DNA of 63,973 nt, filler included, from Hausera hauseri (GCA_046269625.1; 9 parts of 9 records of this genome joined end to end with filler, not necessarily neighbours in it); one strand, 5' to 3'. Positions 16,391 through 63,583 are shown, counted from the first letter of the whole stretch. Numbers and translations: made by a program. Notes: generated by a model from the sequence alone, not told the origin.

Positions 16391-16399
16391 GGTAAAAAA

Positions 16400-17832: not shown

Positions 17833-17841
17833 CAATTACGG

Positions 17842-30799: not shown

Positions 30800-32650
30800 G
30801 ATAGCGACGTGGCGTTCAACGTCATTTTTCCATTGGTTTTCTTCGTATGCTTTAAGCATTTTGCCGAATGGTGTGATGATTGCAGTTAAAATCTTGCAGG
30901 AAAATCCTGCTAGCATGAATATTTTGTACCCGCTCGGATTACCGCTTTTACTAGTTGTACTAAGAAACAGATTGCTAAAAATCTAGATGCGGCTTGTCCA
31001 AAAATTAAAAATCTTCCACATATTTTGTAGAGTATTTCTGTGGTTACCCGTTGGTAATGGTTTACACCAAGTAAGGATTCCCATTTAGCCTGATATCGAG
31101 TATCGTCAACTACTGATGCCATAGCTCGATTTAATTCGTGTGTTCGTTGTCGTGGAAAAGCAAAGAATTGTCGAAAAGTTTCGATTTTTTAGGCCTGTAA
31201 ATACCTTTATGAGATGTATCCTGAAACTTGTCATCAGTAATTCCTTTTGCTAATTTAGTCCCAGTAAGTTTTTTAGGAATGATAGTAACGCCTCCATTAG
31301 GTAAGCTAACCCAATCTGGTTCGCTACGCCTAAACATTGGTTCACCCAGACTTGCCTTGCAATCCTTTAAGATGGTTGGTTGTGTCGCATTATCAAGCAA
31401 CACTTTAGTGAGGGGCATGGCTAGACGTGCAGTATTTTGGTATATTACAGGGAGCTCTTGTATGCATCGTTTTTCTTCGACATTAATTGGTACATCTCTT
31501 TTCTTGCATTCGTAGGTCAGTAGGACCTCGCCAGTAACTCGGCCGAAGATTCCTTCTCTTATAGGAATGATCGGTGAAGCTAACTCAATGTTCGCAGAAA
31601 TAAGAGCTAGTTTTGTCCTCATAATTTCCGTATCTAATTTATAGTCGTTGGTTATCATTTAATGATATAACTCGGTTATTCCGATTTGTCCTTTATAATC
31701 GTCTCGGTTTTTCAGATAATCTTCGATTCTAATGTCTTGCGTTTTTAAGTTGTAGGTTTTCGCGCTTATCTCCGTTTCTGCGACGAAGAACGCTTCGTAG
31801 TTAGTGGTGAACATTACTACTTCGCAACATGAAATCGTTTCCTTTTTATGAATTTCAATCCATGTTGATCAGAGATTAATATCGTAGGTGTATGATCCTC
31901 TGATACGTCTTCACGTGCTCTTGAACTGATGTCGGATTTGTCTACGTATCGTTTCACGGTAGTTTCATTAAATTTCAATTCCTTAATTTTAATAAAATTA
32001 CAACCTTTTCCAGCGGGCGGTTCCCATTTGACGATCGAACTTCTGAAAGCACAGGTTCCGTCCTGTATATGACATTTTTGATTATCGGTATATAGCTTAG
32101 TGACGCTATGGAACATCACTTTCTAGACTTGCATTTATGATTTGTAAAAGTCTACTACTACTACGTTTGCTTCCAGGCCCTTTCCAGTGTTGTATTTTTC
32201 TCCACTACGGTGCCCGTTATGCATATCTAACCTTCCACCTACTACCTTGTATTCCGTAATTATCTTTCCAGGCTGCATTTCTAGTTCCATACTATCCCAT
32301 TTCAATCTTCCGGTTTCTCTGGCCTGCTTGCAGTGTTGCCTTTTCTAATTTATTTGGATTGGATGGGTTGTTGGTTTAATTATTGAGGAGTGCCCATGCA
32401 TTATCCCACAGTGAAAAATCCTACGAGATCGTCTCAGCATACATTCCATGCCATCCAAAGATATCAACTCTTGTTGTTGATACAGGAAATAACTCTTCTC
32501 CTTTGTCTCAAATTTGTGTGGTCTGGAATCTCCGCACGCTTTTAAGTCCATTAATGAATATTTTTGTCCGAGCTTAAACCTATCACAATCGTAGACGGTG
32601 AGAGAACACCCATCTGTTTTATTAGCATCATTATAGTGAGTAGGCTGATT
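30800..32650 (-). pseudogene. env: chuvirus-like (class III) fusion glycoprotein / env
   Basis: In order: TVYDC..SLMDLKAC, RRIFHCGIMHGHSS, CHIQDGTC..VKW..C, GEVLLTYEC, CIQELPV..PLTKVL..C..PMF..W, GIY, then TM FLIFGQAASRFLAICFLVQLV. Order and spacing match chuviral glycoprotein motifs (YDC, CGMHSH, GEV..C, CY.ELPV). Confidence 0.8.
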
Positions 32651-33936
32651 AACCAACTGGATTCATTCTTTCGGTTGTTATTATCCGTTGTCGTCAAGTT
32701 CCGTATGATATCTCCTAGTCCATTATTACTGTTCCTATTATCTTTTTCCTTGTCAAATAATTTTAGCCAATTTATCTCATACGGAAGCTTTCTAGCTGCT
32801 TTTCGTGCCAAGCTTGTAGCTCGGTTCAGTTCATTCTCTCGAATTGAATTTGTCTTGATCGCCAAGTACAATAATACTTTTCTTAGCTCTTCTATCATAT
32901 GTTCCACCATAATTTTCTCAACTACTGCATTGTCAGTTAGGCTACTTTTTGGCAATTTGAAACGCGAACTTCTCGTTGTCCTGGCTGCGTTGAATATCGC
33001 CTTTTCTTTCTCATCTAATATATCGCCGCGAAGACTTGAATAGTTTACAATATGTATTAGGTTCTTCATTAACTCGTTTAACTCTTCATTGTCGGTGCTA
33101 AAAGTATGGATTGACATCTGTCTTAACTCTCTTATCTGTTTTCCATTATAGTCAATTTCTTCTAGGGGCTTTCTAGGTCTGCCGACTGGGCGTTTCGGTC
33201 TTGGAGCATTATCTGGTATTCCACTTAGCGGTACTAGATTCTTGTCGTATTGTTCCTTGTCTTCGAAATACATTGCCGCATCTCGTACACCCATGATTTT
33301 TCCTACGCACTGTTCCGTTTTAGCCTTCCGCGTGACTTCTTTTTTTGTTTGTTTATTTGCTAGCGTTACTACTATTCGATTTATTTCGTCGGGGATGATT
33401 CCTACGTCTATTAATTGTTCTAAATCGTCGAGTATTCTTCCTCTAAAGTAAAATCTGTAATTCAGTTCATTTGTTCCGCCGTTATTTAATAGCCATTCTC
33501 TTACGTCCTTCACGTAGGAGTGCGTGGTTAGCTCACGTTCTTTTTCGTTTATCCACTCGGATGATATCATTATTTTCATCGTTACCTCAGGTTTACCCTT
33601 CATGATTTTTGCATACTTCTTTATTAAAAGTTTCGGCACCGTGTTGTAAATTATGTTTTCATTGGATAACTTAGTCAAAGTTGGAATGAGTTGTCTGAGC
33701 TTATTTTCAGTCATATTCACATTAATTAATTCCATCAAGTCCTTCTCGGTTAACGCTGAGTCTAGGAGCATCGCCACATTGAATTTCCTGTTCTGCGGAT
33801 ACATTTCTGTTTTATCTAGGTGTACTGGAGTTACCGGATTTTCGGCCGTTATTTTTTCTAAATAATCATTCCATTCTGTTTTATTCCCAATATCTGGGAG
33901 TCCATAGTCTACTAGAGCTGTGTTCGTTCTTTGCAC
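32551..33936 (-). CDS. 461-aa polyprotein segment: ubiquitin-like domain, AT-hook, helical region, C-terminal signal-like segment
   Basis: [26 protein letters not shown] resembles ubiquitin [33 protein letters not shown] AT-hook; [12 protein letters not shown]. Confidence 0.7.
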   Translation of the reverse strand: [461 protein letters not shown]

Positions 33937-33978
33937 ATTTTCTTGAATTTCTTTTAGTCTTGGTTATATTTCTTTCAC

Positions 33979-36145
33979 CTACGTAGTTCGAAAACTTATT
34001 CGGTTTCCACAGGTATATTGAATTATTTTTAGTAGTTCGCATAATTCGTTAGAATTGATAAATCCCTTCTGGTGATAATCGGTTAGTTCGATGATTACGT
34101 CCCTTCGCCATCTCTGCACGAACTCTCGCTTATTTTTGATCTCTGATTCGGTAAAAGCGTATTTGATCCGATAGCTTTTAAACTCTTTTACCAATTCATC
34201 TAGCCTCTTTGCTCTTTGTTTCGTTCTGATGCACGTTTCTTCAACTTGTTGTAATTCGGGCATCAATTGCCTTATCTTCTCATCATTAATCTCCACCATT
34301 TCTACCAATAAGTAGGCTAGCCCATACATCTCATTTATAAATTTTGCGTCGGGATCTATTGCACCCAGCAATTTCTTTACGAACTTGGATTCTTCGACAT
34401 TAAGACGTTGGTTGTTTCATATTTTTGTCAAATGGGTCTGGCAATTCTGGTCCGTAGCGGCTATCCATTATCGTGGTTTGTGCAAGAATCTGACTGCCTC
34501 TATTAGGGCTACTCTATGTTCTGGGCAAATACCTAATGTTTCGATATCATGGATCGAAATCTTGTCGATAGGTTTCTCCGTTAAATGTTAAATTCCTTCT
34601 CGTCGGATGTTTCTTAACCTTGAGTAAAAATTTCAAGTCGTATTTCGCTTTTCTGTAAAGTTCGTTTCTTCGAAAATGTTATAGATTTCTTCCAATATTG
34701 TCATTTCTTGTTTCTTCTTCATAAAGTTTAATTGTCGTAATGATTCGAATCGTGTCCGGATGTCTATTTCTGTTTTTATGGTGTTTAAGTTACGTGTGCC
34801 TTCTTCTAGTTGAATTTTTACAGATGGTTCGCTTTCCGGAAATTCTTTATTACGGTTTTTTACTAATTTGCTTAATCTCGTTATTAGTTCGGACCATTCT
34901 GACAATTGATTGGCAATTATTGGCTTGGCTAATATTGCATCTTCTAATTCATCGTCTGGCTCTTTTATGAAGTTTATAAATTGGCTAACATAATTAAGCT
35001 CATCCTTATATTCGTCGAATTCTATGATACAAGCTTTTATTACATATTTGGTTTCTTCATTATTCACGAACATGATTTGATTTCTTAAACTATTGATCTG
35101 CAATCTTTTTTCATTCTCCATTTTGATGCGGCTCTCTAATTCCGCATATCGTCGGTTTCTGACAAAGGCAATTTTTATCATCTCCATTAAGGGAGGAATA
35201 TCTACTGGGTCTACACCCAATATTTCTAAATCAGTATTACTTCGATTGCTGACCTGTTGTTTTCTAAGCCGATTAATCATTGCATAACGTATCTCATCCA
35301 TTTTGCGCTCTAAGTTTCGGGTCACTCTTTTCAACTTAGAATTAGCTTTCAAGGTAGATAGCAGTGTTTGCGCTTCAGCGACTTTTACAACTACGACTTT
35401 TTTACAAGCGACTTTTACTCCACTCTTAATCCACGATTCTAATTCGTGGTTCCATTTTATCAACGTATTTCGTGGCGCCTATTCCGGTTGTTATAATTCG
35501 ATTGCTTCGTCTAGCTTCCCTTCGCTACATAATTTTAAACTTTTATATAATTTTTCCGCAAATTGTTGCTCTTTACCAGATATATCTGTTTGTTTACTGA
35601 TCTGTTTAAATCTCTCTAAATTGTGTCGGAATATCTCTGGATCGTAACATCTAATTCTCATTTTCTTTAATTCGTCGGCATTCTTCCATGAAAGTCGAAC
35701 TTTCCATTTTCTTGCATCCAGATAATTAATATCTTCCGTTTCTTCCTCACTAGCGGGAAGTGGACAGATTTCATTAATTTCGTCATTAACATTTATTATC
35801 TCTGGTGTTTTCAAGACTTCTGGAGTCCCTTTCTGACGTAACGAAAGTATCTGATGACGAGTCGTCTCTTAGGCTAGCAGTATAAAAATCTACTTTTTCT
35901 TCCGCGTCTTTCATTATGAGAGATCTTGAGTGAGTCTTGGATCTTCTCTTAGGCGATGGGCTTCTGCCTCTGTTCTTTGTAATTTTGAGGACTAAGGGCC
36001 CGATAAATTCACTTTCAACTTCATCTGTTATTTTGTCTGAGTTATGCATTACGGCTTCTAATTCTGTGTCTAAGTCTACATTTTGAGATGTTGATGGTTT
36101 CTCGGACTGAGCTATTCCTTGCGGGACAGACTTCTTACGTGCCAT
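33979..36145 (-). pseudogene. long charged/helical coding region of unknown function between gag and the Ubl domain
   Basis: Consecutive same-strand ORFs 35786..36145, 35491..35814, 34633..35463 and 33979..34371; the first is in frame with the Zn knuckle apart from isolated stops. Confidence 0.6.
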
Positions 36146-36399
36146 ATTAGTATTATTTGGGGCCAGTGCCTATTCTTCTTCGGTTTGTGGTTCTCTCAGT
36201 CCATGATAGACTTCCATTAGTCGTAATTTCTCTACATACTCTTTTCTAGCTTTTATGACTTGAGGATTAGTACTTTCGGCTAGGTTCCTTGCAGATCTAT
36301 GCAGATCTTGCATTTCAATGATCAGGCTTATATCACCTCGTTTACCCTAGATGGCTTCTAAATTATTTTTAATCATACTTCTTTTGTTTGGTTCAGTAA

Positions 36400-36747
36400 A
36401 TGTGACATTTCTAGGATTTGGGCATTACCTGGCGATATATCCTTCTTCACCACATGTAAAGCAAATTAAATTTCCATTCCGACCAATCCTTTGTCTGCCA
36501 TCCTCATTCACAGGCGATTTCGCTCTGTTTGTATTCTTATACTGGCCCTGTAACATCTGTCTATTGTCTCCATCATATCTATTATCATTATTCCGATTAT
36601 CCATATATTTGATATTAGGTTGGTAACTACAGTAGGGGAAAATGGCGGTTCTGGCCCACCCCCGGGGGGGTGGTAATCAATAAAGCGATTTTGCACATGT
36701 GCCGATCGGTAGTGCACCCGGAGCACTATTGATCCATAAAGTGCCTG
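36400..36747 (-). pseudogene. gag: family B gag C-terminus with degenerate CCHC knuckle
   Basis: LICFTCGEEGYIAR*CP (CX2CX4HX4C with His to Tyr), preceded by an Arg/Asn/Gln-rich stretch. Confidence 0.75.
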
Positions 36748-41130: not shown

Positions 41131-43331
41131 AATGGCGATGCATCGGCACCATCGGATAATTTGTCATCGTAGCCTTCTGATCTACAGCAATACAGTTCGT
41201 CCTCCTGCACGAGTCTGTTGCCGAAGGACAAATCATTTGTACTACCTCAATCCACCTTCCATCATCTAGTAACAGCACATCAAAGACCAATACGGGAAAA
41301 GGTCCGCCCGCTACCGCCTCGTCGCAAACAGGAAGTGGAGGCCGAGTTCGTTGAACTGGAAAGTACAGGCATAATCAAAAGATCCAAATCCCCCTGGTCT
41401 TCACCACTACATATGGTTCCAAAAAAGATGGCACCTTACGCCCATGTGGTGATTACCGCCAATTTACCACCATAAAAACAATGGATGCCTACCCTCTAGT
41501 GTTAATCAAATTCCGATGGCCCCAGCAGACATTCCGAAAACGGCTGTCATTACACTTTTCGGCCTTTTCGAATACCTTTTCATGCTTTTTGGACTCCGTA
41601 GCGCTTTACAGACATTCCAAAGGCATATTGATACAGTCCTATCAGGGTTAGACTTTGCCTATCCCTATATTGATGATATCCTAATTACATCATCTTTCTC
41701 GAAGCAGCACTCCGAACACTTACGTCTAATATTCCAGCGCTTGCTCCAAAACAACTTGCAAAACAATTTCTCTAAATGCTCCTTTTTTAACATAAAGTAA
41801 ACTTCCTAGGACATGTTATTAGCTCCTCCGTGCATTCATCTCAGCCAGAGAGCATAACACAGCTCAAAAACATATAACTACCACGTACATCTAGAGAGAT
41901 GCGTTCTTTCCACGGAACCTTGTACTTTTTTCATAAGTATGTTCCACACTGCTCCACTCTAACCGCTCCATTTGCATCACCAAGCTCTGGCAAGAAGAAA
42001 CAGCACATTCAATGGACCGTCAAGCTAGTCAACGCTTTCGATCACCTCAAAGACAATTTAAAAGTGTGGAAATCCTGGCCTATTGAGACTCCCATGTAGA
42101 ACTCTTCTTAACCACGGACGCATCCACAACAGTGCAGGTGATGTCCTCCATCAAGTAAAAAATGGATCTCATGAACAATTGGAATTCTTTTCTCGAAAAT
42201 TCACAGAACAAGAACGTCTCCCATCGAAGTCACTTCTCCACAAACATTTTTAGACGACGCGCAGCAATCCAACAATTCACCTTCCATCTTTGCTCAATGT
42301 CTTAATCCACTTTTTCCTAAGTTTTCTATCAAAACTTCCACTTCACTTTCTTCTCACAATTCAGCCTCTTCTTACCCATCCGATGTTGCACCTTCAAGCC
42401 TGTTCAAACCTATTTCATCCTCTCATAACAACCTGCTTTCTTATTTTACAATACCTCCTCCGCCAAACAACGTTTGTACTTCACCAATCTCTCCACCTAC
42501 ACCTTTCATCATTCCAACCTCTTGCATACCACCCTCCAAATACTTTCCTTTGCCTTCTCTATCTTTTCGCTCTCTTCCGCTTGTACCTCTTCACCGCTTT
42601 CTCTCGCTCTCTCCATCTCTTTCCACACCTTCCTCATCTTCGGCGCTTTCTTTCTCCCTTTCTCCTCACAAATCGTCTTCTACCCCCTTCGCTTTCGCTT
42701 CGCAACTCCCTCCTTTCTTTACTTCTATCCCCATCTCTCTTCCTTTTTCTATCACTACCTCTGCTTTATCTTCCACTTCCATTCTTTCACACAATTTTAT
42801 TACGGCTTTTACTCCAACTTCTTTCTTTTTTACTTTATCCGCCACTACACCTTTAGTCATTCCTTCGTCTTCAACAATTTCTCTTCCTCCTTCACCTTCT
42901 CCTTCTCTTTATTCTGACTCATCTTTGCATAACACAACATTCACAACAAAATCCGACATTTTCCCCCAACTTCAACCTCTGCAAACAAACACACAGCATA
43001 AAGACAAAACACGCAAAGTCACATTCAGCAAGTATAGCATGGAAAAATTGTTAGAAGGAACCCAACGTCTTGTATACACTAAGACCGACTGACACAGACA
43101 CTTTTTCGTTTTGCGGTTTTTTTCTCTTTCTTTTTTACCCTTTATAGTTTTCACTTTGCCACGGGGGGTAATGTGGTGCCTGCAGCGGCCGAAGCCCTGT
43201 GGCCCATTTGGTTAGACACGGCCGGGCGTCCGTTGTCGCTTTGTCGGGCCCATAATCGGGCCCCATCCTCTGCCTCGAAAACTTCAAAAAATTACATTTT
43301 GCCAATAATGAATCGTGCTTTTGGGGCCACT
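41131..43331 (+). mobile_element. family A copy A2: RT, partial RNase H, integrase deleted, Ser/Pro-rich tail, PPT and 3' LTR start
   Basis: SPWSSPLHMVPK, YIDDILI; jump at ~42215 to sequence homologous to 1-425 (minus strand); GGGGGGTAA-TGTGG at 43163-43176. Confidence 0.85.
43172..43331 (+). repeat. family A 3' LTR candidate (end uncertain)
   Basis: TGTGGTG follows the polypurine tract; GC-rich segment ends near GGGGCCACTA. Confidence 0.45.
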
Positions 43332-45699
43332 AACGTTTAAACTCAAGAACTTTCTCTTAAAATGCTATATACCGTAGTTTTATATGATGTCATTCAGTAC
43401 GCTAAAAAGATAAAAGTCCCCTGTCTCGTCTGTATAGGCAAGTTAATGGAACAGCGAAATTGTCAAAAGCATTGCCAGCAAATTTATCATTGTTCCAAAA
43501 CAAAGTCTGTCCAAGCGAAAAGCAAGTTATCCTTCAAACAAATACATTATCCGAAGCCGTGAAAAGAAAGTAATCAGACGGAGTTGGGAAAATTTCCGTC
43601 AGGAAGAAAAGGGGCCAATTAGAAAACAAAATAATTCCGAAAGTGACAAACGAAAACGACCTCCGATCAAAATCTAAATGACATTAAACAAATGTTCATT
43701 TCACTCACATCCGAACATTTTGAAAATGGCACTTTGAGTTATCAGCACAATATCGGAAAACCGCATGATTGCTGGTGGTATCTGGGGACTATCTCGACTG
43801 CTACTAAATTGTTTATAAATCCAGCGGTTTCTAGATATTTTATTCTTGATTTATCCGTGTCACTGTTTTTCTTTTTTTTAATTTGAACGTCTTTACATCT
43901 ATTTGATTATTTTCTTCCCGCCCCGCAATTTCATTCGATGTATCAGCTTCGTTGTCTATCAACATGAAGACAGAAAATGACGAGTTATCTGATTCAGTCT
44001 ATTTGTATCGTTACCATTTCATATGAAGATGAATATTTTTATTTGGAACAAAATTCTCCCCTTGCCTTCTGGATATGTTACTATAATTAATTCATTTCAG
44101 TATTTCCTATACCGTTATCCGATAAGGTTTCATCCGAATGAGATTTGTGCTATCGTACGTTTTTCATCAAGGATACTAGTGATGGTGGTCACAATTACGA
44201 TTGGTTGTATTTTTAATATTGAATTTTAATTTTTTATTAAGCTAATGCTGTTAATAAAGCTCTCGAAGGCCTGTTCCTTTTAATGTGTGGTTCATAATTA
44301 AATTGGTTTTCTTTTGATTTTTTTTCCCAATTTTCAGTGCGACGCATTATTCAGAATAATAGACCGTTTCAAACGTTTGTTTTAAGAAGTGTTCCATCAG
44401 TGAAAAAGATAACACCGTATGACAATTTTAAAATTCGCTGCATTATATGCTTTACGAAACCAAGGGTCACCGTTAATCAGAATTTATTGGCTGAGGATCA
44501 AGGCGATGCGTGATCTGCCTCGTTGAATTGGTACATGGAAACATTGTTGCAACATTATCATGCTTCTGCAAATAGTTCTATTATTTATTTGTTTTGTTTT
44601 CTTTGGATTTTTATGCAAAAGTTATTTTTCTCGTGAAAGAGTTAAATTTTGTGTCGAACAAGTGAACTTGCACTTTATTGGGAATGAAATTTCATTGTTT
44701 GTTTTAATAAAGAAAAAAACTGAAGGAAATAAAAAAGAATATTGAATTAAAAAATAAATCAGCCGTATTTTTTGGGAAATTGTCATTCGATTTGATTTTG
44801 CCAATATCATTTAGAATCGGTTTTATTCAATTTTGTTACGAAATCATACTCAGCACAAGTCTTATCAAGACCGTTCTTTTGGGGAATACAATCATTTGCA
44901 ACTATTACTTCAACGGAATTTTATAATTTAACGACAAAATATTTTGCGATCCAAATATCGAGTTTAACCCTATGAAAAAAACGGAATTGCTTCCGAGTTT
45001 AAAGGAAGGGGAATTCTTGAACGTCAAGGATAAATTTCTTTGGTTGTTTTATTCGCTTGGTATTAATAAGAAGGAATACATTGATCATGAACGGATGTAT
45101 GCCGAAGCAGATGCCTATTGTTTCAAAATTTATCATGAAACAAAAATTAACAACGATAATTCCCTAAACTGTTTCCACTTAACAAAACATATGGTCCAGA
45201 ATTATTCTTCGCGAGTTCGCGGTGGTGCTGATTTGGATTGGCATGGTCCATGTAACCATAGAATATTCAGAATTTGATTTTGCAATAAATGTTTTTTTGT
45301 TCATTTTTATGTTTGCTCACTGCCCGACTAAATATTAGTGTGTGATTAATTACAACTTCGATTACATTTTTAGAGGCAATTTTGTTTTACTTCATTCTTT
45401 CTATCTGTTACTAGTATACGAAATCTATATAAACATGAATGTGATAATTGTATAATTTAAGGTAGAATGCGAAGACGTCAGTTTACTGAGGAAGATAGAA
45501 ATGTTGAACGATGTGTGGCTTTAAACGGATCCCATGTCGATTTGAGGATAAATGTTGAAAATAATGGTTTATTAGACATGAGACATGTTCCTCGACATAT
45601 GACACTAAAACTAAAAGAAGTTGACCGTTTGCGGTAATGTAAGATACAGTTTGGTGGTTTAGTCGAGTTTGAGAAGATTGTTGACGGTGACATTAGAAG

Positions 45700-46782
45700 A
45701 TGGAGGTTATCTCCTCGTGCACAAGCATGGAATGAAGACTTTATCGAAAATGTTGGACAAATTTTGAACGAAAAAATTGTTACGTATTCGGAATGCGGAA
45801 GTGGGTGGAGATTACGTCGGATTATTGAATATAAATTTACTGTAACAAAGACATCTGTTATTATATACTTGTCCGGACGATCATATATTAAAACACCTGG
45901 GGGCCTTCATAAGCCAAAGTTTATAGTAAATGTTCAAAATTTGAACAATAATTGTTTTTGTACAGCATTCGTGCTGTACTGCATTAAGATGATGTACGAC
46001 ATAATCATCATCGGCCAAATAATTATCTTCCATTTATGCATGAATTGAATTATGAAGATAGCGAAATGTCAATGAAATTATCTGGAATTTGCAGCTTTGA
46101 GCAAAGAAATCGACGGCTTGCAATTAACGTTTTTAAATACATTAATGATACCAATGATGTAATTGATCAGAATCAGGACGTGTTTAAAAACCCACATGTT
46201 GATATTTTGTATCGTACAAAAACCGTTCATCAAGTCGTATTGTTAACCTATTGGTACTTGAAGACTCTGACAGATTTCATTACGTTGCCCTTGTAAATTT
46301 AAATCGACTGCTGAATTTCAACAATTAGGTGATTCGAATAGGCTGCAAATGGTGTCAGATTTGTTTGCATGGCTTTATGTCAAAAGGCATATGACAATCA
46401 TGTTAAATTATGTAGAGACAATCGCGACCATACAACCCTATATGTAATGCCAACATCGAAAAGCTGTCAGTTTACCGACTGGTCTAAGCTTGCATCTCTG
46501 GCTTTTGTCGTGTATTTGGATTTTGAATCTATCTTACCACCTTGTGATGGGTTTCAACAGAAACATATTCCGGTAGCTGCTGGCTTGTTGCTTGTTCCGT
46601 TAAAGGATATGGAATCAACGCCGCAATACTACCATTTCGTAGGTGATAATTGTATTATTGACTATTTGTCATGTTTGGATACTCTGGCAAAGACTGTTGT
46701 GGTTCCATGGTATGATAGGAATACTCATTGCCCTATGTTTTCATTATCCGCTGAGGATGAGTATGCGTTTCTTCATGTATAA
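45700..46782 (+). mobile_element. Polinton/Maverick-like DNA polymerase B N-terminal region fragment, frameshifted
   Basis: GSGW, GRSYIKTP..IVNVQNLNNNCF, FEQRN..AINVF, C2H2-like HVKLC, FVVYLDFESIL and QKHIP, in the order seen in invertebrate Polinton-type pPolB proteins. Confidence 0.65.
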
Positions 46783-49700
46783 AAAACCGGCAACTTACTT
46801 ATTAACCCCATTAATATGTTTCATGTTGAAGTTAAATGTTGACAAGTATTGTATCTGTCGTTCTTGGCGTGTGGAAGGATATTTCATAGCCATGATGTTA
46901 AGTAAGGGTTTGCGATCGGTTTGTATAATAAAATGGCGAGAGCGATGAGTATGTGGGCGAAATGCTTTAAAGCAAGAACGATCGCCAAAAACTCTCGATC
47001 AAACGTTGAATATCTAGTTTTAGGGGATGTTAGCTTACGAGAGCAAAATTCTAGCGGTTGATTTTCTCCTTTGTAGGTCTGGTCGAGTATAGCACCTACC
47101 ACAGTTGTTGAAGCGTCTGTAGTAAGGATGAGTTCTGCATCAGGCTTGAGAAAAGCGAAAATGTCGACGGTCTTAATTCCTTCGCGTAACTTATCAAATT
47201 TGTCTACCAACGCAGGTGTCCAGTGAATTGGCTAATGTTTTTTACCACTGCTTAAGTGTGCAAATGGTGCTGTCAATTCGGAGCAATATGGTACATATTC
47301 ATGTACAAAGTGTCGAGAAAGCTGCGCATTTTGGTGGTCGTACGTGGAAAATGGATATTTTTAAGAGCTTCGACTTGGTCTGGTTGAGGAGAATGGCCGT
47401 CTGGTGAAATAATGTGGCCTAAAAAGTTGACGCATTTTTTGAAAAATGGCATTTGTTGAAATTGACTTGGAGATTATGGTGGTGGTGGCATTAAAATATT
47501 GCGCGAAGGTTTTCCTCGTGTTGTTTGACCGAAGACGAAACGATCAGAATATCGTCAGTGTAAGGGTGCGCAAACGGAAAATCTGAAAGAAAAGAATCAA
47601 TATGTCGCTGAAAGGTCTGTGCGGCATTTCGCAACCGAAAGACATAAACAGATACTCGTAGATGCCAAAAGGAGTAGCGACAGCACTTTTTTCTATGCCT
47701 TCGGATGCCACCGGTATTTGATGGTATGCTTTGGCCAAATCAATGGTCGAATAAATGGTAGATGAATTAAGGCGATGCAGGATGTCCTTGATATCGGCAA
47801 GGGTGACGTATCCATGTTTGTCAAGTTGTTCAACTGGCGGTAGTCACCGCATGGTCTAAAAGTACCGTCCTTTTTTGTACGGCGTGTAAGGGTGACGAGC
47901 AAAGAGATTTAGAACGGCGTACAATGCTGGGGCGTTCTAGTTTGAGAAATTCCACTTCTACGGCCTGTCTACTACGAGGTGACAGTGGTCACACCTTTTG
48001 ACGCGTTGGTCGTTGATGCTGTGTAATTATGTGATGTACAGTGCTGTTTGTAGAGAGAAACGATCTTTTTTAAGTACGCATAGACATGATATGGTAACGA
48101 ATTGCTGTAAAATTGTAGGAAACTGTGATAGATTCGGTGATGATGGTAAAACAGTTTGAGTAGTAGCGGATGTGATTTCTGAATTGTTTTGTCATGTGCA
48201 GTCAAGTGGTATTTGGTGTAAGATGGTCAAATTGAAAATGGTGTTGGATGAAGTGATTTCGTCAAGTGAATAAACATTGGTTGCAGTATCAAAATTATCG
48301 ATATTGAATCTCTATCAAATATCTATATTATTGCTTAAAAATTTGCGAATTGAATTCTTGTTATGGAAATTCAAATTATTTATTAATTTTTCCAAAACTG
48401 ACCTCCGTGTTTCGATCGACTGCACGGCAGTCGAAATGCCATTGACATGCTCAGTAATGGTGCCAGTGATGCCGTTCCTCAGACATCGTTGACTGCAGTC
48501 AACCAATAAATTATAATGCGATAGAAAATCGGACTCCAGGATTGCCGTCTGGACGTTAGCAACTGTGAACATCCAGTGGAAAAGTGAAGGAAAATTTGGT
48601 AAGATGAAAGATAATTTAGACGTTCCTGAAATGTGCAGCGGTTGACCTGAAGCGGTGTATAAGGGCTTAATTCTGAATGGTGAATTTTGTACAGGAAAAG
48701 ATTGTGGTAATAAGGGAATCGCTGCACCTGTATCAATAAGGAAATCAACGGATTACGTTGTAGGAGCGGTGATTGCAGCCTTTAAAGTAAAGACAGCAAA
48801 AGAGGCGTGTCGGCATTCAGAAAGTGAAGTAGTGCATTTGACAGAGTTTGCCGTGACTTCTGGTGGCAAATTTAGTTTCTTTGAAAAGGTGAACTAGGAC
48901 GACTATTAGAAGAAGAGGTACTACATCCATCGTTGTGTCTGGTTTGAAAGTTCAGTCTGGAATGCATTTACGGGCTTGATTTTTAAACTTTGTGCTGTAA
49001 ATGCAAACAACGGTGTCTGAAGAAAAAATTTTGTTGTAAAATTTGCACCCTAGGCAGCATTTCTTGGCATTCTTATTGAATCTGCTGTGATAATAGCAGA
49101 TTGACGACCGCGTAGACGATGGTGGCCGGTTTCTAGATGCAGAATGGGTGCGCTCAGCAGCAAAATCCTTTCACCGGGACAAGGAAAGCTCGTTTAATTT
49201 GTTGCTTATATTGTTAATTGTTGCTTGTAGTGCTGTAACGTAGTGCTGTAGGCACGTAACTTGTTTAGTTTTTGCTCTATTAATGTGTTGTTGTTTGTAT
49301 ACTGGTAGTGGCAACCGCCGCCAGAACGATTGGCGGGGAGTTTAAGTGCAAAACGTCGTGTGTTTTATCGGCTAATTCGGCCAATTTCTCAAGAGCTGTG
49401 GAGTCCGCCACCACGGTAAGTAGTAGTGGGTAGTAGGGTAAGGCGTTGAGAAAGTAGTGACGCAGTAGTTCGGGATTGTGTTCTTTAGTGACGCCGAGAG
49501 TGTGCAGATGTGCCAAAGATGTGCGTCGAAATTCTGATGGTCGTTGTGTGCCTATAGCATTGTCGTGGAAGAAGCGTTGTATGATCGTGTCTATTGAGGG
49601 TTCTGTGATCTTAAGAACAGCATTGGAAAGTTGTGAATATAGATCAGGAAGTTCAAAGATTTCGATAATGTGGTGAATTTGTGTTTTGATATTGTTAGGG

Positions 49701-50329
49701 AGTAAGTAGAGGAAATTGTGTGCCTTGGTTAAGGAATCGGGGATATTGTTTGCCTGTAGCCACAGTTGATGGAATTGCAACCATGTTTTGCTGGAGCCTT
49801 GGTTGTCAATGAAGAATTCGGTGCAGTTAGGGAAAGGAGCGGAAGAGGTAGTAGATGAAGGGTTATTAACGGAAGTAGGGGTGGGTTTTTGAAGCAGTGT
49901 TACAGATTTTGGTTTCATGGTAATTTTGTCCGCGGTGTCTATGTTTGGCGATGAGTTCATGTCACCGCGGTTACAGAATTGTATGTGGAGGTGGATATAA
50001 GTTGAAAAAGGTTGCAGTGTCCAAATGAGAGGTACTGTGAAGCCGTGGTGTGTGACGTAAAAGTCAGGTGAGCGAAGAAAATTGGAGATGGCGTTGTAGA
50101 TAGCCACAGTTTTTAAGTGTGTTAATGCGGTTGTGTAGATGTTTATTATTTAAAAAAAGGAAGAGGGAATACGGGGAGATCGTGTAGCCAGAGGCGTGTC
50201 GTGGGGCGTCAGAGAACAGTGCCGCCTGACCCAATGGTATAGGGCGGGCGGCTGGGACTTCAGTCTCGCCGCGGCGAATCGCAAACTTCGGTGTAACCGA
50301 GTTCCCACGCATGCAATGTTTCTCCATGG

Positions 50330-50335
<6 letters not shown>
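46783..50335 (-). mobile_element. family A copy A3 (diverged): leader, gag, PR, RT, RH; truncated at both ends
   Basis: ORF 49280..50107 gag, FLIDTGAA, RPCGDYRQLN, LTTDAS, YSTFDREFLAI. Confidence 0.9.
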
Positions 50336-51274
<939 letters not shown>

Positions 51275-51826: not shown

Positions 51827-54800
51827 GCACCCTTATACTGCTTACTTAAAAAAGGAACTAAATGCAGATGGACGGACGTCTAACAGAAAGCCTTCGAAGA
51901 AATGAAGAAGATATTAACAAGTGAACCTGTTTTACGTTATCCAGACTTTAACTTACCTTTTATAATCAAGACAGAAGCCAGTAAAGAAGGCATTGGATAT
52001 GAATTAGCGCAGAAAAGAGAAGATGAAGAATAGGAACACCCGATTGCTTATGGGGGACGTTCTTTAAAAAAGGCCGAGAAAAATTATTCTGTTAATGAAT
52101 TAGAAACTCTAGCTGTAAAAGAAACACTTTGTCATTTCAGTGTGTACGTATATTGGAAGAAAATTATAATTGTCACCAATCACAAGGCCGTCACAACCTT
52201 AAAGGGCCGAGCAAATAACCCAACATGTAGACTTAACAGATGGATCGAAGAAATTTCCAGATATAATATCGAATTTCAATAAAGCCAGGAAATAAACATG
52301 TAGATGCCGATGCCTTATCAACATTAAAGACTAAAACTAGTGCGATTACAGTAATGAGGAAAAGTCAGCTGGAAGAAGTAATAGATCACCAACGCGCCTT
52401 AAAGATGGATAAAGTAATTAGAATCTCAATAGAACAAAGAAAGGATAAGGTTATTCAGCAGATTATAGAATTTTGCTAAAAGGGATATCATACCCAAAGG
52501 ACGGCAGTTAAAAAAACAATTATACAGACATGGACATAAATATTGTGTCCTGAACGGTAAAGGCAATGAGGATATTTTGTATTACAAACAAAAAGGAAAG
52601 AAATTAATAGTTAACCCAAAGAATTTACGAAACCGAAATTTTAACTTCAGAACATGATTCATATTTGGCCGGACATATGTCCTGGAAGAAAACACTAGAA
52701 AAAGTAATGAATAAATATTTTTGGCCTAGTATCTACATTGATGTAAAAATTGGGTAAATGCATGCGAAGTATGTGCCACTAAGCAAATGAAGACGAAAAA
52801 CTATATGGCCGAATTAAAGCCAATTAATGTGCCGATAGACCTATGAAGGCCATGTCTACGGATATTGTAAAACCCCTTCCTACAACTCACAAGAACAGTA
52901 AATATATCTTAACGTGTATCGATCGGTTAACTCATTTTGTTCAGTTTATAGCATTAATTGATCAAAAGGCGGAAACCTTAGCAGAATCTGTAGTAAAAAG
53001 AATTATTTGCCGATACGGACCTCCAGACCAAATACTCACCGATAGAGAAAGAAATTTCACAAGCGAACTATTCGAGAAAATCACGAAGATTTTCGAAATC
53101 GAACGACTAAAAACTACTGCATATCATACTCAGTGCAACGGAGTGGTCGAATGGATGAATGCCACCGTCATACGCATATTATCAACAGTAGTAGCAAAGG
53201 ACCAAAAGGATTGGGACGAGTTTTTAGAAGGAACCCAATTTGAAATTAACACCACACCACACCCAGCGACAGGATTCACTCCATTTTTCATAATGTATAG
53301 ACGTGAAGCCGTGTTACCCATGGACTTAGGAATGATGCCATACACGGTTAATCCCGAAGAATTAGAACAAAACTTCGCGGAAGTCTTACAAACACGGTTG
53401 CGGAAGTGTTGGGAAATCTCTAAAGAATTATCCCAAGAATACCAAGAGCAGTTTAAAAGCAATATGATAAGGAAGCAAAACCTCATAATATAGAACAAGG
53501 AAACTGGTTTTATGTGCATTATCCAGTAGCTAAAAAGGCACCTCATTGACTCGTACAGGCAGAGGACCGTACGAAGTTACCAGGGTGACGCCAACTACAG
53601 TATATATTAACAAAAATGGAAAGGAAGAAGTCGTGTCAATACAAAGAATTGTTAAGACAGAGATACGACCCAACAAACGTTACAACTTACGCCAACGCAA
53701 GAAAAAATCCTCCTCAATAATCATTAAACCGATCTCGTACGTTCAGATAGTTTTAGCATTATACTTAATTGCTTCTTTTATTCCGAAAACACAAACCAAA
53801 GGGTGGCACGATGAATCTACACTGAAAGATAATTACGTAACTAGGAAATGAGGAGCAAGATGAGAGGTTAGGAAAACGGAAAGAAAATCATCGGTCGAAG
53901 AAATTCAAAGGTCACTACAGTCAATGTCGATTCGCTATTACTCGTCCAACTCCACATGTGTTGGATTTAAGGTGCAGAAACCACATCCCAAATTTGGAAG
54001 ATTCCAAATCGTCTTAGATGATGTGATAACAAAGGAAACCAACAATTGTGACTTCGAGCTTGGAGACAACATGCAATGTTGGAACGCAGAATTCGGACGC
54101 ATTTATAACCTTACCTACCGTTTGTATCTACCAAACTTATCCAAAATCTATGACACAAGGCCACCATTTCAGCTAGTTATTCCTCCTCGGAACAAAAATC
54201 ATGGAGTATAACTAAAGGAAATGATGAGATCTACCAAACCAGACACAAAAATTTTAGACGGGAATATCCAGAGAATTTCGGTTAATAACGCAAAGCAGTG
54301 CATTCAGGTAGGCACCTGGATAGAGTTAACGATTAATCGAGAAATCAGTATCGGAATGATTCCGAAAATACAATATTGTTCTATTTGCACGGGTATACAA
54401 CACCCCTGCTGCAAACTACTTGTGAACCTAGAATTCAAAATAAAGTTTGACTTATACTAGATACGGCCTAACCGACCAAGTATACAATTACGAACTTACT
54501 ATGCAAAAAATAGAATTTGGAAAATTTTAGCGAAAACCACGACCAAAAAGATTAACCAAACTGTCACCACAAATAACATACCTAAAACAGAACTGGAGAG
54601 TATACTTATCAAATTTTCGTCCCATCAGTATAAAATCGTGTTCTTTGTAGAGAAGAAACAGAATTACGATATATACGTAAACTTTCGGACAACGCATAAC
54701 AACCAAATTGTAACATTATTTAAAAACACCGATCAAACAGAGTGTAATTTACTAAAACCGCAATCTGAATACATAGTACAAGATCATGCAGAGAACAAAC

Positions 54801-56113
54801 AAACCCTAACAATTACATTACATACCTTAGACGAAACTCACGCAGAACCGCATAAAAATATATGCGACGAAACTATAACGCCCTTTACTACTAGAGCACC
54901 ACTAGGATTAACTGCCTTGCCGATTGTATCTATTGCAGTACTGCCGACATTTGTTCTCATTACGTTAACCGCGATTTTTCGATTAGTTACCAAAAATTGT
55001 CATTTTAAGCGTAAAGGAAATATAAAGCGGGAACTGAGAGAACGGGGAGACCCCATTGATCCATATGACAAAATAACCTGACAATTACAGAATGGGTTCT
55101 TCTGCCATTTGATAAAAAATGGTTTTATTTTAAAAATGACCTTTATTTTAAGAATAATCCATATTATTTATTTCCCAGAATCGAAAACAGTGGAATGTCC
55201 GAACGACGTAGAATCGACGAACGAGAAGGAAGAAACATTTCCACCTGTCGAGTTAGTATCAACGAATTTCTTCACAACTATGTTACTGTTCTCCTTATGA
55301 ATTCAAATTCAATTTATCGAGAAATACATAATGAGCTGCACGGAAAGGGCCATCATAAATACGACCAGGTCCACGCCATACCCAGTAATTTAAAGCGAAC
55401 GACCGAGGAAGATAAAATCGTCTACCTCTATGCTATAAGGAAAGATCGTGATGTAAGAGCCTATTAACTTAGACAATTAATAAATTTCAAAATCGGTCAA
55501 GATGTGTTCATCCACTTAGCAGATAGCGAGATATATTAAAGATTACAAATTCAAGAATAGATTACACAAAAAGGAAGAGAGTACAGGTTTAGCACCCTAA
55601 AGATCCAAAGCGAAGACTTACAAAATAAGGAATTGGAATTCAGAGTCGCCGCTCTTCCCGTCAAAATAATTATTGAAGTAACGAAAGAGGAAGAAAGAAA
55701 AAACATGTTACCACCCCTAGAATTTCGGGTTAGACCGTTAGAAGCGGAGGTAGTAAAATCTTTGTATTCCTATAGATTGGTACCCCACACTAGAAACACT
55801 AAAATTATTGCTGTGAGCTGTGGCAAAGGAAATGAAGCGGACAAAATCCAGATGGAAATTTCAATCAGGGAGACGGACGGAACGGAATTATATCACACAA
55901 TAATTAGCCCAAGGAAACGGATCAGAGACTTTCTTTGACCAAACAGGAATCCGTAAAGAAAACTTGAAAGAAGGAAAAGATATCAATAGGGTACAAAATG
56001 AACTGGCCCATTGTCTGTATGGATGTATCCTTATCGGATATCGAATAGAAGAAATTGTATCGTTACTAGAAATTTCTTATTCAGAAATAGCAGGAATAAG
56101 AGAACATAATACG
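51827..56113 (+). mobile_element. family B copy B5: RH, integrase, FN3-like membrane protein, accessory/exonuclease-like ORF
   Basis: Integrase ORF 52843..53493; 53546..53851 links GPY and KRYNLR to the signal segment; 54638..55081 FN3/TM/PYDKIT; 55633..56113 exonuclease-like. Confidence 0.9.
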
Positions 56114-56946
56114 TGTTATATATTGGGGTGGCCCTTAACTCACGCCCCTTATATATAACAGAATTACTTCGAATTTAGATTTCCTTATGCAAATTCGGAC
56201 TAACGTTATCGTTAGACGAATGTGCCTAGTATGTCGATTTAACGTGGATGCAAATGTAGTGTATGCAAATCCTGTGCGTAGATTAAAAGATTCTTGTAAT
56301 CTATATAATTTACAGTTGATTTTAATACTTAGTGTGTCTCTAATCAGCCTTAAGGGCCGATGGCAACTATATAGGGAATTTAGAATAAATAGATAATACT
56401 CACGATATATTGACTAAATAAGCGACGAAGAATCACGAAATAAACAACGTCAATACGGATGCAATTTGAACTGAATTGAATGTGTTGCGTTGGAAAAGAC
56501 AAATCGACGCGACTGTCGATGAAATTCTTTCCTTCGGGTAAATAATTAGAATCTTCTGACAAGCAAACCGACGCTACAGTCGATTATCTCTTCGAATCAA
56601 TGAATAATACTTCGAGTTATTTGACGAGCTAATCGACGCTACAGTCGATGAAAAAGTGTTCGAATTATCGTTCTAAACGTTGTCCTTATATACTTCTCGT
56701 TTCAATACATCTGTACATAATCCGCGTAATTATTCACCATTCTTTTCAGATTTATCTCATTTTCCGACATTTGCTCAATTATTATCAGAATAATATTCAC
56801 ATGCTGCATTTACACTAATTTAAATAACATTTATAAATTTCAACAATAACCATATTATTATCATCGTGTGATATCTACAGTGTTTACAATATATCATTGT
56901 GTGATATTCACAAATGTTGAATATATCATTGTGTGATATTATAACA
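56114..56946. repeat. LTR-like insertion truncating B5
   Basis: Starts TGTTATA and ends TATAACA; left end homologous to 23603; no target-site duplication visible. Confidence 0.55.
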
Positions 56947-59788: not shown

Positions 59789-62700
59789 AAAAAGGATGAC
59801 TTTAGGATTATTAGGTTTGGAAGTGTCGAAGGCCACACCGTCGATGGTTTTGCACGATTTAAAAGATTTAAGAATGTCAGGCGGGGCTGGTTTTGTTGAA
59901 ATTTGGATTGAGGAAAAATTGGTTTGAAATCAACCGAGCTGACCGATCGGGACAAACAGTCGGCTACTGTATTGTCGACTCCGTTTAGGTACTTAATTTC
60001 AAAATTAAATGTTAACAAATACGATATTTGCCTCTCCTGACGTGGAGAAGGCTATTTCATGGTGAGAATTTGAAGCAAGATCTTGTGGTCCGTTTGTATG
60101 GTAACAGTTCGTGCAGTTAGTAGATGTTTAAAGTGTTTTACAGCAAGGACCATTGCAAGCAACTCTCTGTCAAAGGTGGAATATCTCTGCTCTTGCGCTG
60201 TGGATTTTCGAGAAAAGAATTCCAATGGCTCATGGGATCCATTTTGACTTGATGGGGGACAGCACCTGCAGCTGTTGTGGATGCATCAGTGGTTAAGAAG
60301 AGTTCTGCATGGGAGTCGGGATAGGCCAGGATTTCTACGGTTTTTAGATTATCTTTGAGATGATCGAAAGCATTGACTAGTTTGGCGGTTCATTGAATAG
60401 GCTGTTTTTTCTTGCCAGAACTTAGTGATTCAAATGGAGCGGTTAGAGTGTAGCAATATGGAACGTACTTATGAATAAAGTGCAATGTTCCGAGGAAAAA
60501 ACGCATATCTGTGGATGTACGTGGTAGTTGTATGTTTTTGAGCTGTGTGATGCGGTCTGGCTAAGGTGAATGTCCGGAGAAGCTGATAACATGTCCCAGT
60601 AAATTGACCTTATGTTGAAAAAAGAAGCATTTGGAGAAATTAATTTGCAAGTTGTTTTGATTCAAGTGCTGGAAGATTAAACGTAAGTGTTCAGAGTGCT
60701 GCTTCGAGGAGGATGATACAATTAAGTTATCATCAATATAGGGATAGGCGAAGTCTAAACCTGAGAGAACTGTATCAATATGCCTTCGGAAGATCTTGGA
60801 AACGCTACGGAGTCCAAAAGGTATAAAGATGTATTCGAAAAGGCCGAAAGGTGTAATAACAGCCGTTTACAGAATGTCTGCTGGGGCCACCGGAATTTTG
60901 TGGTATGCTTTGTGTAGATCAATGCAGGAGAAGATGGTCGCACCATGGAGCCTGTAAAGGATATCGTTGATTAATGTAGAGGGTAGGCATCCATTGTTGT
61001 TATGGTGTTGAGTTGGCGATAATCACCGCATGGGCGAAAGGTGCCATCTTTTTTTAAAACCGCATGCAGTGGTGAAAACCAGGAGGATTTGGATCTTCTG
61101 ATTATGCCTGATTTTTCAAGGTCGAGGAACTCAGCGTCCACTGCCTGTCTGCGTCGGAGCGAAAGCGCGGCGGACCTTTTAGCTGCATTGGTCTTTGATT
61201 TGCTGCTACTATGTGATGAAAGGTGGATTGAGGTGGTGTGAGTGATTTGTCCTTCTGCAACAGACGCGTGCAGGAAGACGAAATGTATTGTTGTAGATAA
61301 GAAGGCAACGATAAAAAATTATCCGATGGTGTCGATGCATCGTGACTGGATGCAGTTGAGGTATAAGTTATAGACAAGGTGTTGTGACTGGGTGGTATTT
61401 GGTGCAGGATGTTCGTATTGAAGATGGTGTTGGCAGCTGTGCTATTAGAAATAGATGCCACGCAGTTGGCAATGTCGCATTTGTCACCGTAATAAAAAAT
61501 TCTATATAATGAATGATTATAAAAATAATCCAAATCGGAAGTCGTTTTTTTAGTATTGACTTACTGGACGCGATCGCCGGGGTGGTTATAGAAATGCTAC
61601 TGATTTGATTAATGTTATTTCTGCTCTTTAAGGAGCATTGTTTGCAATACACAAGTATATTGTGGTGGGACAGAAAATCTGAACCCAATACAGGTGTGTG
61701 TACATTAGCTATTGTAAATTTTCATGTGAAAGTGTTTGTGAAGTGTGGGAGGGTGAATGTTAAGGTGGTAGCTTCAAAGATTTGTAAAAGTTCACCGGAG
61801 GCAGTGAACAGTTGCTTTTGTGAAATGTAATTGTGTTGTATGTGCTGTGCTGGTGGCAGTAGTGAGATTGCTGCGCCTGTGTCTAAGAAAATTTATTTTT
61901 TGTTTTGTTGGATTGATGACTGCTGCTTCTAACCTGAATGCAGCAAAAGAAATGTGTCGGCTGTGTTTTTGCAGGTTGTTGCCTTTGTAGGACTTGCCGT
62001 GTGTCCTAACGGCGAAGTTAGTTTTTTGGAGTTGGTGAATTTGGCCTACTGTTTTGTGTGAACTTGTTAGTGTTGGTCTTATTGTGTGTGCTGTAGGTGC
62101 AACCAGGTAGGCATTTTTGTGCTTTTGTGCCAAATGTTGAGTGGTAGATGCAAACCATGTTGCCTGTATTGAAACCAGAGGAATAAAATTTACAACCTAT
62201 GCAGCATTTCTGAGCATTGTTGCCAAATTTGCTATGATGACAGCAAGTTAATGACCGCGCTGGAGAAAGCGACCGTCTTTGACGTTGGTTAAACGCATTA
62301 GGGGAAGCAGGCCTAGAAAAACCCCGTCGAGGTAGTGTTAATGAGTTTAGTTTGTCGTTAATATTGTTGATTGTTTTTTGTAATGCTTCATTTTCTGTGC
62401 GCAATTTCACAATTTGTTGTTGCAGCACTGCATTTTGTTGTTGTTGATCTGTTGTCAATGCTGCAGAGATAGTTGGTGCTGCATGTGAATGCAGTACTTC
62501 GTATGCCTTGTCTGCCAGTACTGCTAGCTTGTCAAGTGCCGTGGAGTCTTCAACCACAGTTAGCAAAGCTCTTATTTGAAGGGGCAATGCATTTAAGAAA
62601 TAGCGACGAAGAAGCACGGGATTGTGTTTAGAGGTTACGCCAAGGATGTTGAGGTGAGACAAGGATGTGCGTAAGAGTTCAGAAGGATTTTGAGGGCCCA

Positions 62701-63583
62701 TAACGTTGTCATGAAAGAACCTTTAAATGATTGAATCGATTGAAGGCTCAGTAAGCTTGAGGACTGCATTGTAGAGTTGTGTATATGGGTCAGCATCTTA
62801 AAGTATATCGATTATATTGGTGATTTTAGTTTTCATGGAAGCTCGTAAGTGGAAGAAGAGGCTGTTGGCTTTGGCTAAAGAGTCTACGACATTTTGCGAT
62901 TGGAGCTAAAATTGGTGCAGTTTTAGTCAAGTTTGAGTAGAGTTTTAGCTGTCAAGAAAATATTCGGTGCAAGGTGAATGCATAAGGAGGGTGTGTTGTG
63001 TTGAAGTGTTTAAAATGCTTTGCTTGGGTAAATGGATGATGTAAATCTGCGGCCTGGTAAGTTTCTCCGTGGTGTCAACTGCGGGTGACCAGTCCATGCC
63101 ACCACGGACACGGAAATAAATGTGAAGACAGATGCGGGTTGAGGACGATTGTAGAGTTCCAGCGAGGTGTATTAGACATTTATTGTATGTGAGGTAGAAA
63201 TTAGAGGAGTGGAGTAAGGTCGAGATAAAGGTGTAAATGGTTGCAGTATGTAAGTGTAATGCTGTGTGTATGGATATGTTCATTATTTAAAAAAAAGAAG
63301 ATGGAGTAGGGAGAGGTGGTATTCCCGGGGACGTGTTGTGGGGCGGCAACAAACGGTGTCGTCTGACCCAATGGCGCAGGGTGGATGGCCGAGAACTCAG
63401 CCTCGGCGAGGCGGGTCCCACACGTTGGGGTAACTGAGTTCCCTGTACGTAATGTTTCTCCGTCGGTCACTCCGTGTTTACTACACAGCAGATCCATTTT
63501 ACAGACCAATGAAGAATTATTTTCATTATTCATTCTCAGTGCACTTTGTGGGCGTGGGTTCGAATCCCACTTCTGATACCAGT
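59789..63583 (-). mobile_element. family A copy A4: PBS, leader, gag, PR, RT, RH
   Basis: Colinear and visibly similar to 1420-5075; gag ORFs 62945..63283 and 62018..62701. Confidence 0.92.
63551..63581 (-). promoter_or_regulatory. tRNA-Leu primer binding site (extended)
   Basis: Plus strand GGCGTGGGTTCGAATCCCACTTCTGATACCA equals the tRNA-Leu T arm, acceptor strand and CCA; on the minus strand it follows ..TTACA-AC (LTR end at 63584). Confidence 0.88.

Follow-up and report, generated by a model that had tools for sequence, protein, structure and literature searches.

What does a Ty3/gypsy retrotransposon do with a receptor-like membrane protein encoded directly behind its integrase, and is that protein made on its own or as the tail of a polyprotein? 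The question is raised by 63,973 nucleotides (nt) of Hausera hauseri DNA (GCA_046269625.1; the window), in which nine pieces are joined artificially through eight 100-base gaps, each with a central 12-base linker, at positions 7156, 12502, 19519, 27519, 36748, 41031, 51727 and 59689. Because of this joining, adjacency across the gaps is meaningless. Five pieces hold parts of one Ty3/gypsy family (copies B1 to B5; Table 1), every copy being decayed and interrupted by assembly gaps, so that both ends of an element never lie within one piece. In the pol region of B2, the Pfam profiles RVP, RVT_1, RT_RNaseH, Integrase_H2C2 and rve follow one another in the order protease, reverse transcriptase, RNase H, integrase that is expected of Ty3/gypsy elements. 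The DNA identity of pol is 71% between B3 and B2, 73% between B3 and B5, and 75% between B2 and B5. One public DNA run, possibly the source of the window itself and hence not independent, contained 66% of the B5 words and 8411 contig records on B5 at a likeness of at least 80%, which indicates that the family is highly repeated. The public-run lookup listed no RNA run containing B5 words.

The membrane-protein gene behind the integrase in B5, B2 and B1 is real. Its product consists of a signal segment, three predicted FN3/Ig-like domains with a Thr-rich stalk between the second and the third, a transmembrane helix and a tail ending in YxxI, and has the domain order described in the original prediction, a reading made from the DNA alone. 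The FN3-like motif quoted in that prediction, LKPQTEYIVQVFA, is that of B2, the B5 counterpart being LKPQSEYIVQDHA. The homologues share the Cys pattern, the stalk, the helix and the tail, as well as the signal segment where the N terminus is present. The YxxI motif, followed by one residue and the end of the protein, is found in B5, B2, B1, B4 and two database proteins, P0001 and P0002. The protein has two hydrophobic segments, 11 to 12 Cys residues and sequons. All three gene copies are broken within the window. In run X1, single contigs join position 53685 to 54971 and 53626 to 55064, skipping the ectodomain, with a side of 26 to 27 letters and the content of the interval not seen; these contigs are possibly variants without the gene.

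A comparison of nonsynonymous and synonymous substitution rates (dN/dS) between copies, which the original prediction had proposed as a check, showed that the gene is under purifying selection. The B5 and B2 membrane proteins are 62% identical, with a dN/dS of 0.17 (95% interval 0.11 to 0.25, 384 codons) at a dS of about 0.9 to 1.3; the ratio is 0.09 for the FN3 part and 0.08 for the integrase core. B1 is 32 to 34% identical to B5 and B2, and synonymous sites are saturated in every pair that includes it. The broken state of every copy in the window would fit a recently captured host gene fragment carried passively in a dead element. However, the dN/dS of 0.17 largely refutes this explanation, and the gene keeps the same position behind the integrase in lineages as divergent as B1 and B5/B2. 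In addition, it has no introns and no host homologue, and an intact relative exists. We therefore regard passive carriage as extremely unlikely.

This relative emerged from a profile of the three ectodomains searched against 1.84 billion representatives, which gave two matches, both of the same protein family and both singletons. P0001 (479 residues, E value 2.6e-90) is free of stops and is the only intact relative found, and P0002 (189 residues) corresponds to the C-terminal part. P0001 is 35% identical to B1 over residues 6 to 479. In a tree of the five rows, the sole supported grouping was that of B5 with B2, and the tree does not root the fused versus the separate state. Word-based searches confirmed P0001 alone among 4748 candidates for the five-row alignment (A5; proteins of 29 to 839 residues) and none of 1251 candidates for the B2 ectodomain, while scans of metagenome contigs confirmed none of 315 and none of 130 stretches. 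A sequence search of the PDB with alignment A2 gave no matches. As neither the PDB nor the profile search of the 1.84 billion representatives yielded a host donor or a host receptor homologue by sequence, the capture from a host cell-surface gene proposed in the original prediction is unproven and has the status of an assumption.

Structural comparisons point to a stack of beta sandwiches. Two models were built on the sequence of B2, X standing for the stops, and reached a predicted local distance difference test (pLDDT) score of 39 for the sequence alone and 55 with three rows. With the better model, the first 14 rows of a Foldseek search were all multi-FN3 proteins, including contactin, fibronectin, gp130 and IFNAR1, with a best E value of 7.3e-6. 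In VIA comparisons of the B2-row model with fibronectin (6mfa), domains 2 and 3 gave Z scores of 7.8 and 7.9, respectively, each with a root-mean-square deviation of 2.5 over 83 aligned residues; the top row for domain 2 was an Ig-like domain of beta-galactosidase (Z 8.1). The best matches of the C-terminal part in the Atlas search were the FNDC9 and FNDC5 clusters, which combine FN3 with a transmembrane segment (0.89 to 0.90, with FNDC9 at 0.90). The fold searches tested domain 1 poorly. Domains 1 and 2 of P0001 align with a score of 75 that none of 1000 shuffles equaled, showing that they are true internal repeats and bearing out the two Cys-paired beta repeats noted earlier; 23 of 1000 shuffles scored as high for domains 2 and 3, and 668 of 1000 for domains 1 and 3.

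Several results weigh against an FN3 assignment. Both models are of low confidence, and the Foldseek TM-scores are about 0.2. Z scores of 7 to 8 are common background for VIA, and sandwiches other than FN3 tie or lead (CrdA, Z 9.0), although most entries in the lists are FN3 proteins. The recognition value of the Atlas search, 2108, is below its threshold of 2300. Finally, the Pfam fn3 profile (PF00041) matched domain 3 of B2 with an E value of 0.009 and 16.6 bits and P0002 with 13 bits, under the gathering score of 25 bits, and did not match P0001. A BFVD fold search returned FN3/Ig proteins of phages and giant viruses, with no retroelement or fusogen among the best 50 rows, an absence that excludes nothing. 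The models thus make three FN3/Ig-like sandwiches likely, and the fold searches sustain the predicted FN3-type membrane protein in this broader sense, whereas strict FN3 membership is not established.

The manner in which the protein is made depends on the junction with the integrase. In B5, positions 53534 to 53851 read RGPYEV..KRYNLRQRKKKSSSIIIKPISYVQIVLALYLIASFI without a stop or an in-frame ATG, as had been described. The copy is not a single open frame, however: it is interrupted by stops at 53849, 53861, 54209 and 54458, and its integrase core is read in another frame. The frame that runs to the terminal stop at 55079 to 55081 contains 4 internal stops, whereas the remaining two have 39 and 32. 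In B2, the junction is open in exact register with that of B5 and likewise has no Met, but a stop occurs in the integrase tail and another after the signal segment, followed by a frame change. B1 shares the phase, its junction being longer by 27 nt, exactly 9 codons. However, it contains two in-frame stops that the original prediction did not mention, the second directly before an ATG (7445), and the corresponding Met aligns with Met6 of P0001, which contains no integrase residues.

No in-frame ATG separates the end of the integrase from the signal segment in B5 and B2, and 12 of the 19 differences between them in that segment are at third codon positions. The best acceptor-like AGs upstream of the signal segment follow 13 and 11 pyrimidines of 20 and are not common to the two copies; the next gene is preceded in all four copies by an aligned tract with 14 to 15 pyrimidines of 20, an AG and an ATG. 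The stop and Met of B1, the Met of P0001 and the open junction of B5 and B2 together argue for a separate gene in some lineages, those of B1 and P0001, and for a probable fusion to the integrase in one, that of B5/B2. The predicted in-frame fusion thus probably holds for B5 and B2 and not for the whole family. A stop after the integrase in intact copies, which had been named as grounds for rejecting fusion, was found in part: B1 has a stop and a Met, and P0001, read as protein only, begins at its own Met.

Against fusion, a 12-codon linker has a 58% chance of staying free of stops if it changes neutrally, which makes the stop-free linker weak evidence by itself, and two lineages would share a phase by chance in one case in nine. 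Moreover, no long fused integrase-FN3 protein was found in the profile search of the 1.84 billion representatives or in the word searches, which were weak or limited to proteins of 29 to 839 residues, and a query made of the integrase tail and the signal segment confirmed none of 298 longer proteins, which is weak evidence. These observations, along with the Met that B1 and P0001 share at one alignment column and the calling of P0001 as a free-standing 479-residue protein, fit an alternative that we consider a tentative but serious contender: the gene may always be separate, with its own Met or a spliced leader in the manner of gypsy env, the open junction of B5 and B2 being derived or non-functional, or translation there having a non-AUG or spliced start. 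The ORF3s of bdelloid rotifer retrotransposons, as far as the portions of that study at hand describe them, are typically separate spliced units (PMC5408684). Conversely, B5 and B2 are far apart by their dS and both keep the selected signal segment without an ATG, and they share no upstream acceptor. The stops of B1 may be the result of decay, and P0001 is known as a protein. The env signal of B3, which likewise lies where a long frame ends, also counts for fusion, as does the whole number of codons by which the B1 junction differs.

This env was overlooked in the original prediction. B3 carries a broken gB-type, chuvirus-like env between gag and pol, the only copy in which it was found. Upstream of it are a gag zinc knuckle and a long decayed open reading frame (ORF) with a weak ubiquitin-like stretch (E value 0.09); the ORF has 10 stops in about 1100 codons, versus 85 and 137 in the other frames. 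One long frame reaches the env signal, and the env pieces lie in several frames, this copy being decayed. A gag-env-pol order with an HSV/gB-type env (HSV, herpes simplex virus) is documented for errantiviruses of Nematoda, Bryozoa and Platyhelminthes in the accessible part of the survey by Chary and Hayashi (PMC13524379). The family thus probably already has a gB-type fusogen upstream of the protease, and its presence in B3 likely shifts the role of the FN3 protein from envelope to accessory partner. The FN3 protein is probably an additional protein of the surface, with attachment as its most likely part in the pair, and not the Env. A point against this scheme is that the gB-type env and the FN3 gene are never seen together in one piece, and that their presence in the same element depends on the overlap in pol: the sequence of B3 breaks off short of the FN3 gene, and those of B1, B2 and B5 start downstream of env, with gaps on the 5′ side.

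The membrane protein itself does not resemble F-type or gB-type Env, in agreement with the original prediction. No Pfam fusion-glycoprotein profile matched it in B5, B2, B1 or P0001, and it contains neither an R-x-K/R-R furin-type site nor a second hydrophobic segment of the fusion-peptide kind. Taken with the low-confidence models, the analysis supports a type I membrane protein whose fold is FN3/Ig-like and which is not itself an Env of either type. A location 3′ of pol and a type I topology are nonetheless those of a canonical env, and the gB-type env is seen in B3 alone, which is cut off before the FN3 gene. The protein might therefore be a novel stand-alone envelope, a fusogen, of a subfamily. 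The same lack of a fusion peptide and of a furin-type site, together with a fold that is a receptor-like sandwich stack, makes this very unlikely.

The explanation that we favor, with roughly even confidence, is that a large Ty3/gypsy family maintains a selected accessory gene for a type I protein with three predicted FN3/Ig-like domains, likely the attachment partner of a gB-type fusogen that would be encoded upstream of the protease. In the B1 and P0001 lineages, translation would start at the gene's own Met, and in the B5/B2 lineage the protein would be made as a polyprotein tail. In the latter case, the hydrophobic segment after the integrase would function as an internal signal, cleavage by signal peptidase would release the ectodomain, and the protease of the element would presumably trim the integrase off the leftover anchor. 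Internal signals and protease trimming of this kind are general features of viral polyproteins, and the residues that precede the likely cleavage site are small, which fits signal peptidase. The FN3 stack would be displayed on its stalk at the surface of the cell or particle and bind a host surface molecule, with the YxxI tail sorting the protein and gB performing fusion.

The FN3 protein might instead modulate the host rather than serve entry, as a receptor decoy, an adhesion molecule or a block to superinfection on the producing cell, a prospect that we rate as rather unlikely. Its layout is cytokine-receptor-like, the ectodomains of gp130, IFNAR1 and IL-12Rb1 are among the fold matches, and a YxxI tail is a possible sorting or signaling motif. 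Furthermore, the element carries additional cargo that looks regulatory, a RING finger for example (E value 1e-6). However, fibronectin and contactin score equally well, and no host receptor homologue appeared by sequence. Class I cytokine receptors have a WSXWS motif in their second FN3 domain, and this motif is absent from all rows of alignment A5.

The end of the gene has features of its own. In B5 the terminal stop is followed by a conserved spacer with a CARYYA context, an 11-pair stem, a pyrimidine tract and an AG. CARYYA follows the stop in 3 of 4 copies, and pairwise identity of the stop context is 94% over 9 nt, compared with 51% in the tail. The stem begins 11 nt after the stop; 84% of its cells are paired and 3 pairs are changed on both sides, and 12 of 500 shuffles scored as high, the structure having been chosen from the same sequences. 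Folding was clearly better than that of shuffled sequences in B2 (z = -3.07), the other copies giving -0.77 to -1.67, and RNAalifold favors a structure of the spacer other than those of the single-sequence folds. Given this disagreement and the excess in B2 only, the stem is a lead and nothing further. The downstream frame, ORF X, is in frame with the stop in B2 and B1 and out of frame in B5 and B4, and no Pfam, PDB or Atlas search identified it. Readthrough signals described in the part of the literature consulted are CARYYA, which marks type I, and, independently of it, an extended stem that lies about 8 nt downstream (PMC3542737). Readthrough of the terminal stop is thus possible, splicing to the downstream AG being an equal rival.

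Carried to its full extent, the favored explanation would describe a two-glycoprotein retrotransposon, with a gB fusogen before the protease and a three-FN3 attachment protein after the integrase that share entry as in herpesviruses or paramyxoviruses. Both would, in one subfamily, derive from a single membrane-weaving polyprotein that is cut through internal signal peptides, and stop readthrough would tether the next accessory protein to the FN3 tail. We consider this full scheme unlikely, if worth stating.

Table 1. Positions of the family copies, of the parts of the FN3-type membrane-protein gene and of other features of the window
Feature	Position	Strand	Basis or remark
B1, piece of the family	7256-12501
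B2, piece of the family	12602 to about 18500
B3, piece of the family	27619-36747	-
B4, piece of the family	ends 19518		Inverted fragment
B5, piece of the family	51827 onward
B5 integrase core	52828-53493	+	Pfam rve, E 6.8e-12; frame differs from that of the integrase tail; copy decayed
B5 integrase C-terminal region (GPY..RYNLR)	53534-53692	+	Conserved in B5, B2 and B1; no Pfam match; presumed from Ty3/gypsy motifs
B5 basic linker, integrase end to signal segment	53693-53728	+	12 codons without stop or ATG; 7 of 12 residues as in B2
B5 signal-peptide-like hydrophobic segment	53729-53800	+	Hydropathy 2.19; kept in B1 and P0001; internal signal if fused
B5 domain 1, Cys-rich beta repeat	53915-54190	+	Putatively FN3/Ig-like, by homology to domain 2
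B5 domain 2, Cys-rich, predicted FN3/Ig-like sandwich	54251-54500	+	VIA, model of the B2 row
B5 Thr-rich stalk	54536-54571	+	Sequence; in all 5 homologues
B5 domain 3, predicted FN3-like	54596-54823	+	B2 counterpart by Pfam fn3, VIA and Atlas search; no Pfam match for the B5 piece itself
B5 transmembrane helix	54923-54988	+	Hydropathy 2.55; helix in model
B5 basic cytoplasmic tail ending in YxxI, then conserved stop	54989-55081	+	Sequence
B5 conserved spacer	55079-55178	+
Spacer in B2	17830-17930	+
Spacer in B1	8789-8889	+
Spacer in B4	19385-19280	-
ORF X, next accessory gene	55195-56134	+	Broken; homologous in B5, B2, B1 and B4
ORF X, C-terminal part	55759-56134; 9437-9860	+; +	Presumably like a DEDD 3′-5′ exonuclease without the acidic catalytic residues
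B2 integrase tail, signal segment and membrane-protein gene	16200-17832	+	Junction without Met or stop; broken
B1 membrane-protein gene	7445-8791	+	Own Met directly after in-frame stop
B4 fragment: transmembrane segment, tail, spacer, start of ORF X	19170-19518	-	Ended by assembly gap
B3 gB-type (chuvirus-like) env, between gag-side ORF and protease	30900-32662	-	PF24664 in 3 pieces, E 1.5e-7, 1.7e-9 and 5.5e-5; broken
B3 gag zinc knuckle and long decayed ORF	32551-36610	-	zf-CCHC, E 0.0035; hydrophobic segment at end, ahead of env
C3HC4 RING finger, 3′ end of B1 accessory region	10717-11154	+	E 1.1e-6
Second, smaller Ty3/gypsy family, several decayed copies	1-5070; 41136-42639; 46829-50335; 59791-63471	both
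Myb-domain gene piece, just upstream of a second-family copy	50465-51064	-	E 1e-7; we take it to be CDC5L-like
Host-type MFS transporter ORF	20727-21386	+	MFS_1, E 6e-6
Decayed pieces, presumably Polinton/Maverick-type DNA polymerase-like	44927-46782	+	No Pfam match

The open-access text searched contains nothing on an FN3 membrane protein in a long terminal repeat (LTR) element. The word "fibronectin" does not occur in the main text of PMC13524379 or in PMC5408684 and PMC6431247, nor "Ig-like" in PMC13524379, in each case within the portions available. FN3-type receptors such as FNDC5/FNDC9, gp130, IFNAR1, contactin and fibronectin likewise combine a beta-sandwich stack with a transmembrane segment and a short tail, as predicted here. 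In contrast, identity in the structural alignments is 2 to 20%, there is no match at the sequence level, and no single family stands out. Extra genes other than env behind pol, some with transmembrane segments, are found in LTR elements of bdelloid rotifers, whose ORF3s encode transmembrane proteins, GDSL esterases and DEDDy exonucleases; none is described as FN3 in the sections consulted (PMC5408684).

Among our observations, the fusion to the integrase has less generality and less novelty, and the greater interest lies in a possible two-glycoprotein system. In the accessible part of the eLife survey, the mechanism of transmission is called elusive for most elements (PMC13524379). How gB-type errantiviruses choose their target cells is open, and a second glycoprotein of receptor-like build, dedicated to this task, would offer a concrete candidate for what sets tropism; were the protein a decoy instead, it would represent a retrotransposon-borne receptor mimic. 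The intact natural member P0001 makes structure and binding testable.

Polyproteins with a membrane glycoprotein after pol, as proposed for B5 and B2, are known from the Atlas belpaovirus, which has a Gag-Pol-Env polyprotein according to the part of the preprint consulted (bioRxiv 10.64898/2026.03.22.711591), and this arrangement is thus not new in itself. However, that virus belongs to BEL/Pao and its Env is a phlebovirus-like fusogen, whereas the present family is Ty3/gypsy and has an FN3 stack. The gB-type errantiviruses with GAG-ENV-POL order resemble B3 in having a Ty3/gypsy pol with a gB-type env upstream, but the elements covered in the accessible text have one env each (PMC13524379), while in the present family the integrase is followed by a second membrane protein and additional genes. 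A similar layout is that of Burro/GYPSM1, a giant gypsy-like element of planarians, with which the family shares large size, a Gag knuckle, a long insert with a weak ubiquitin-like stretch and an env between gag and pol. In Burro this env is in frame, and accessory ORFs may be subdomains of a polyprotein, as far as the available portion of its description goes (PMC6431247). The same text lists MATH, BIR, BCL2-like and ankyrin cargo, none of which matched in the B3 pieces scanned, and describes the env of Burro as a gypsy Env homologue, whereas that of B3 is gB-type. In the present family, the same accessory gene occurs both free-standing and, probably, as part of a polyprotein, a duality that has also been suggested for Burro.

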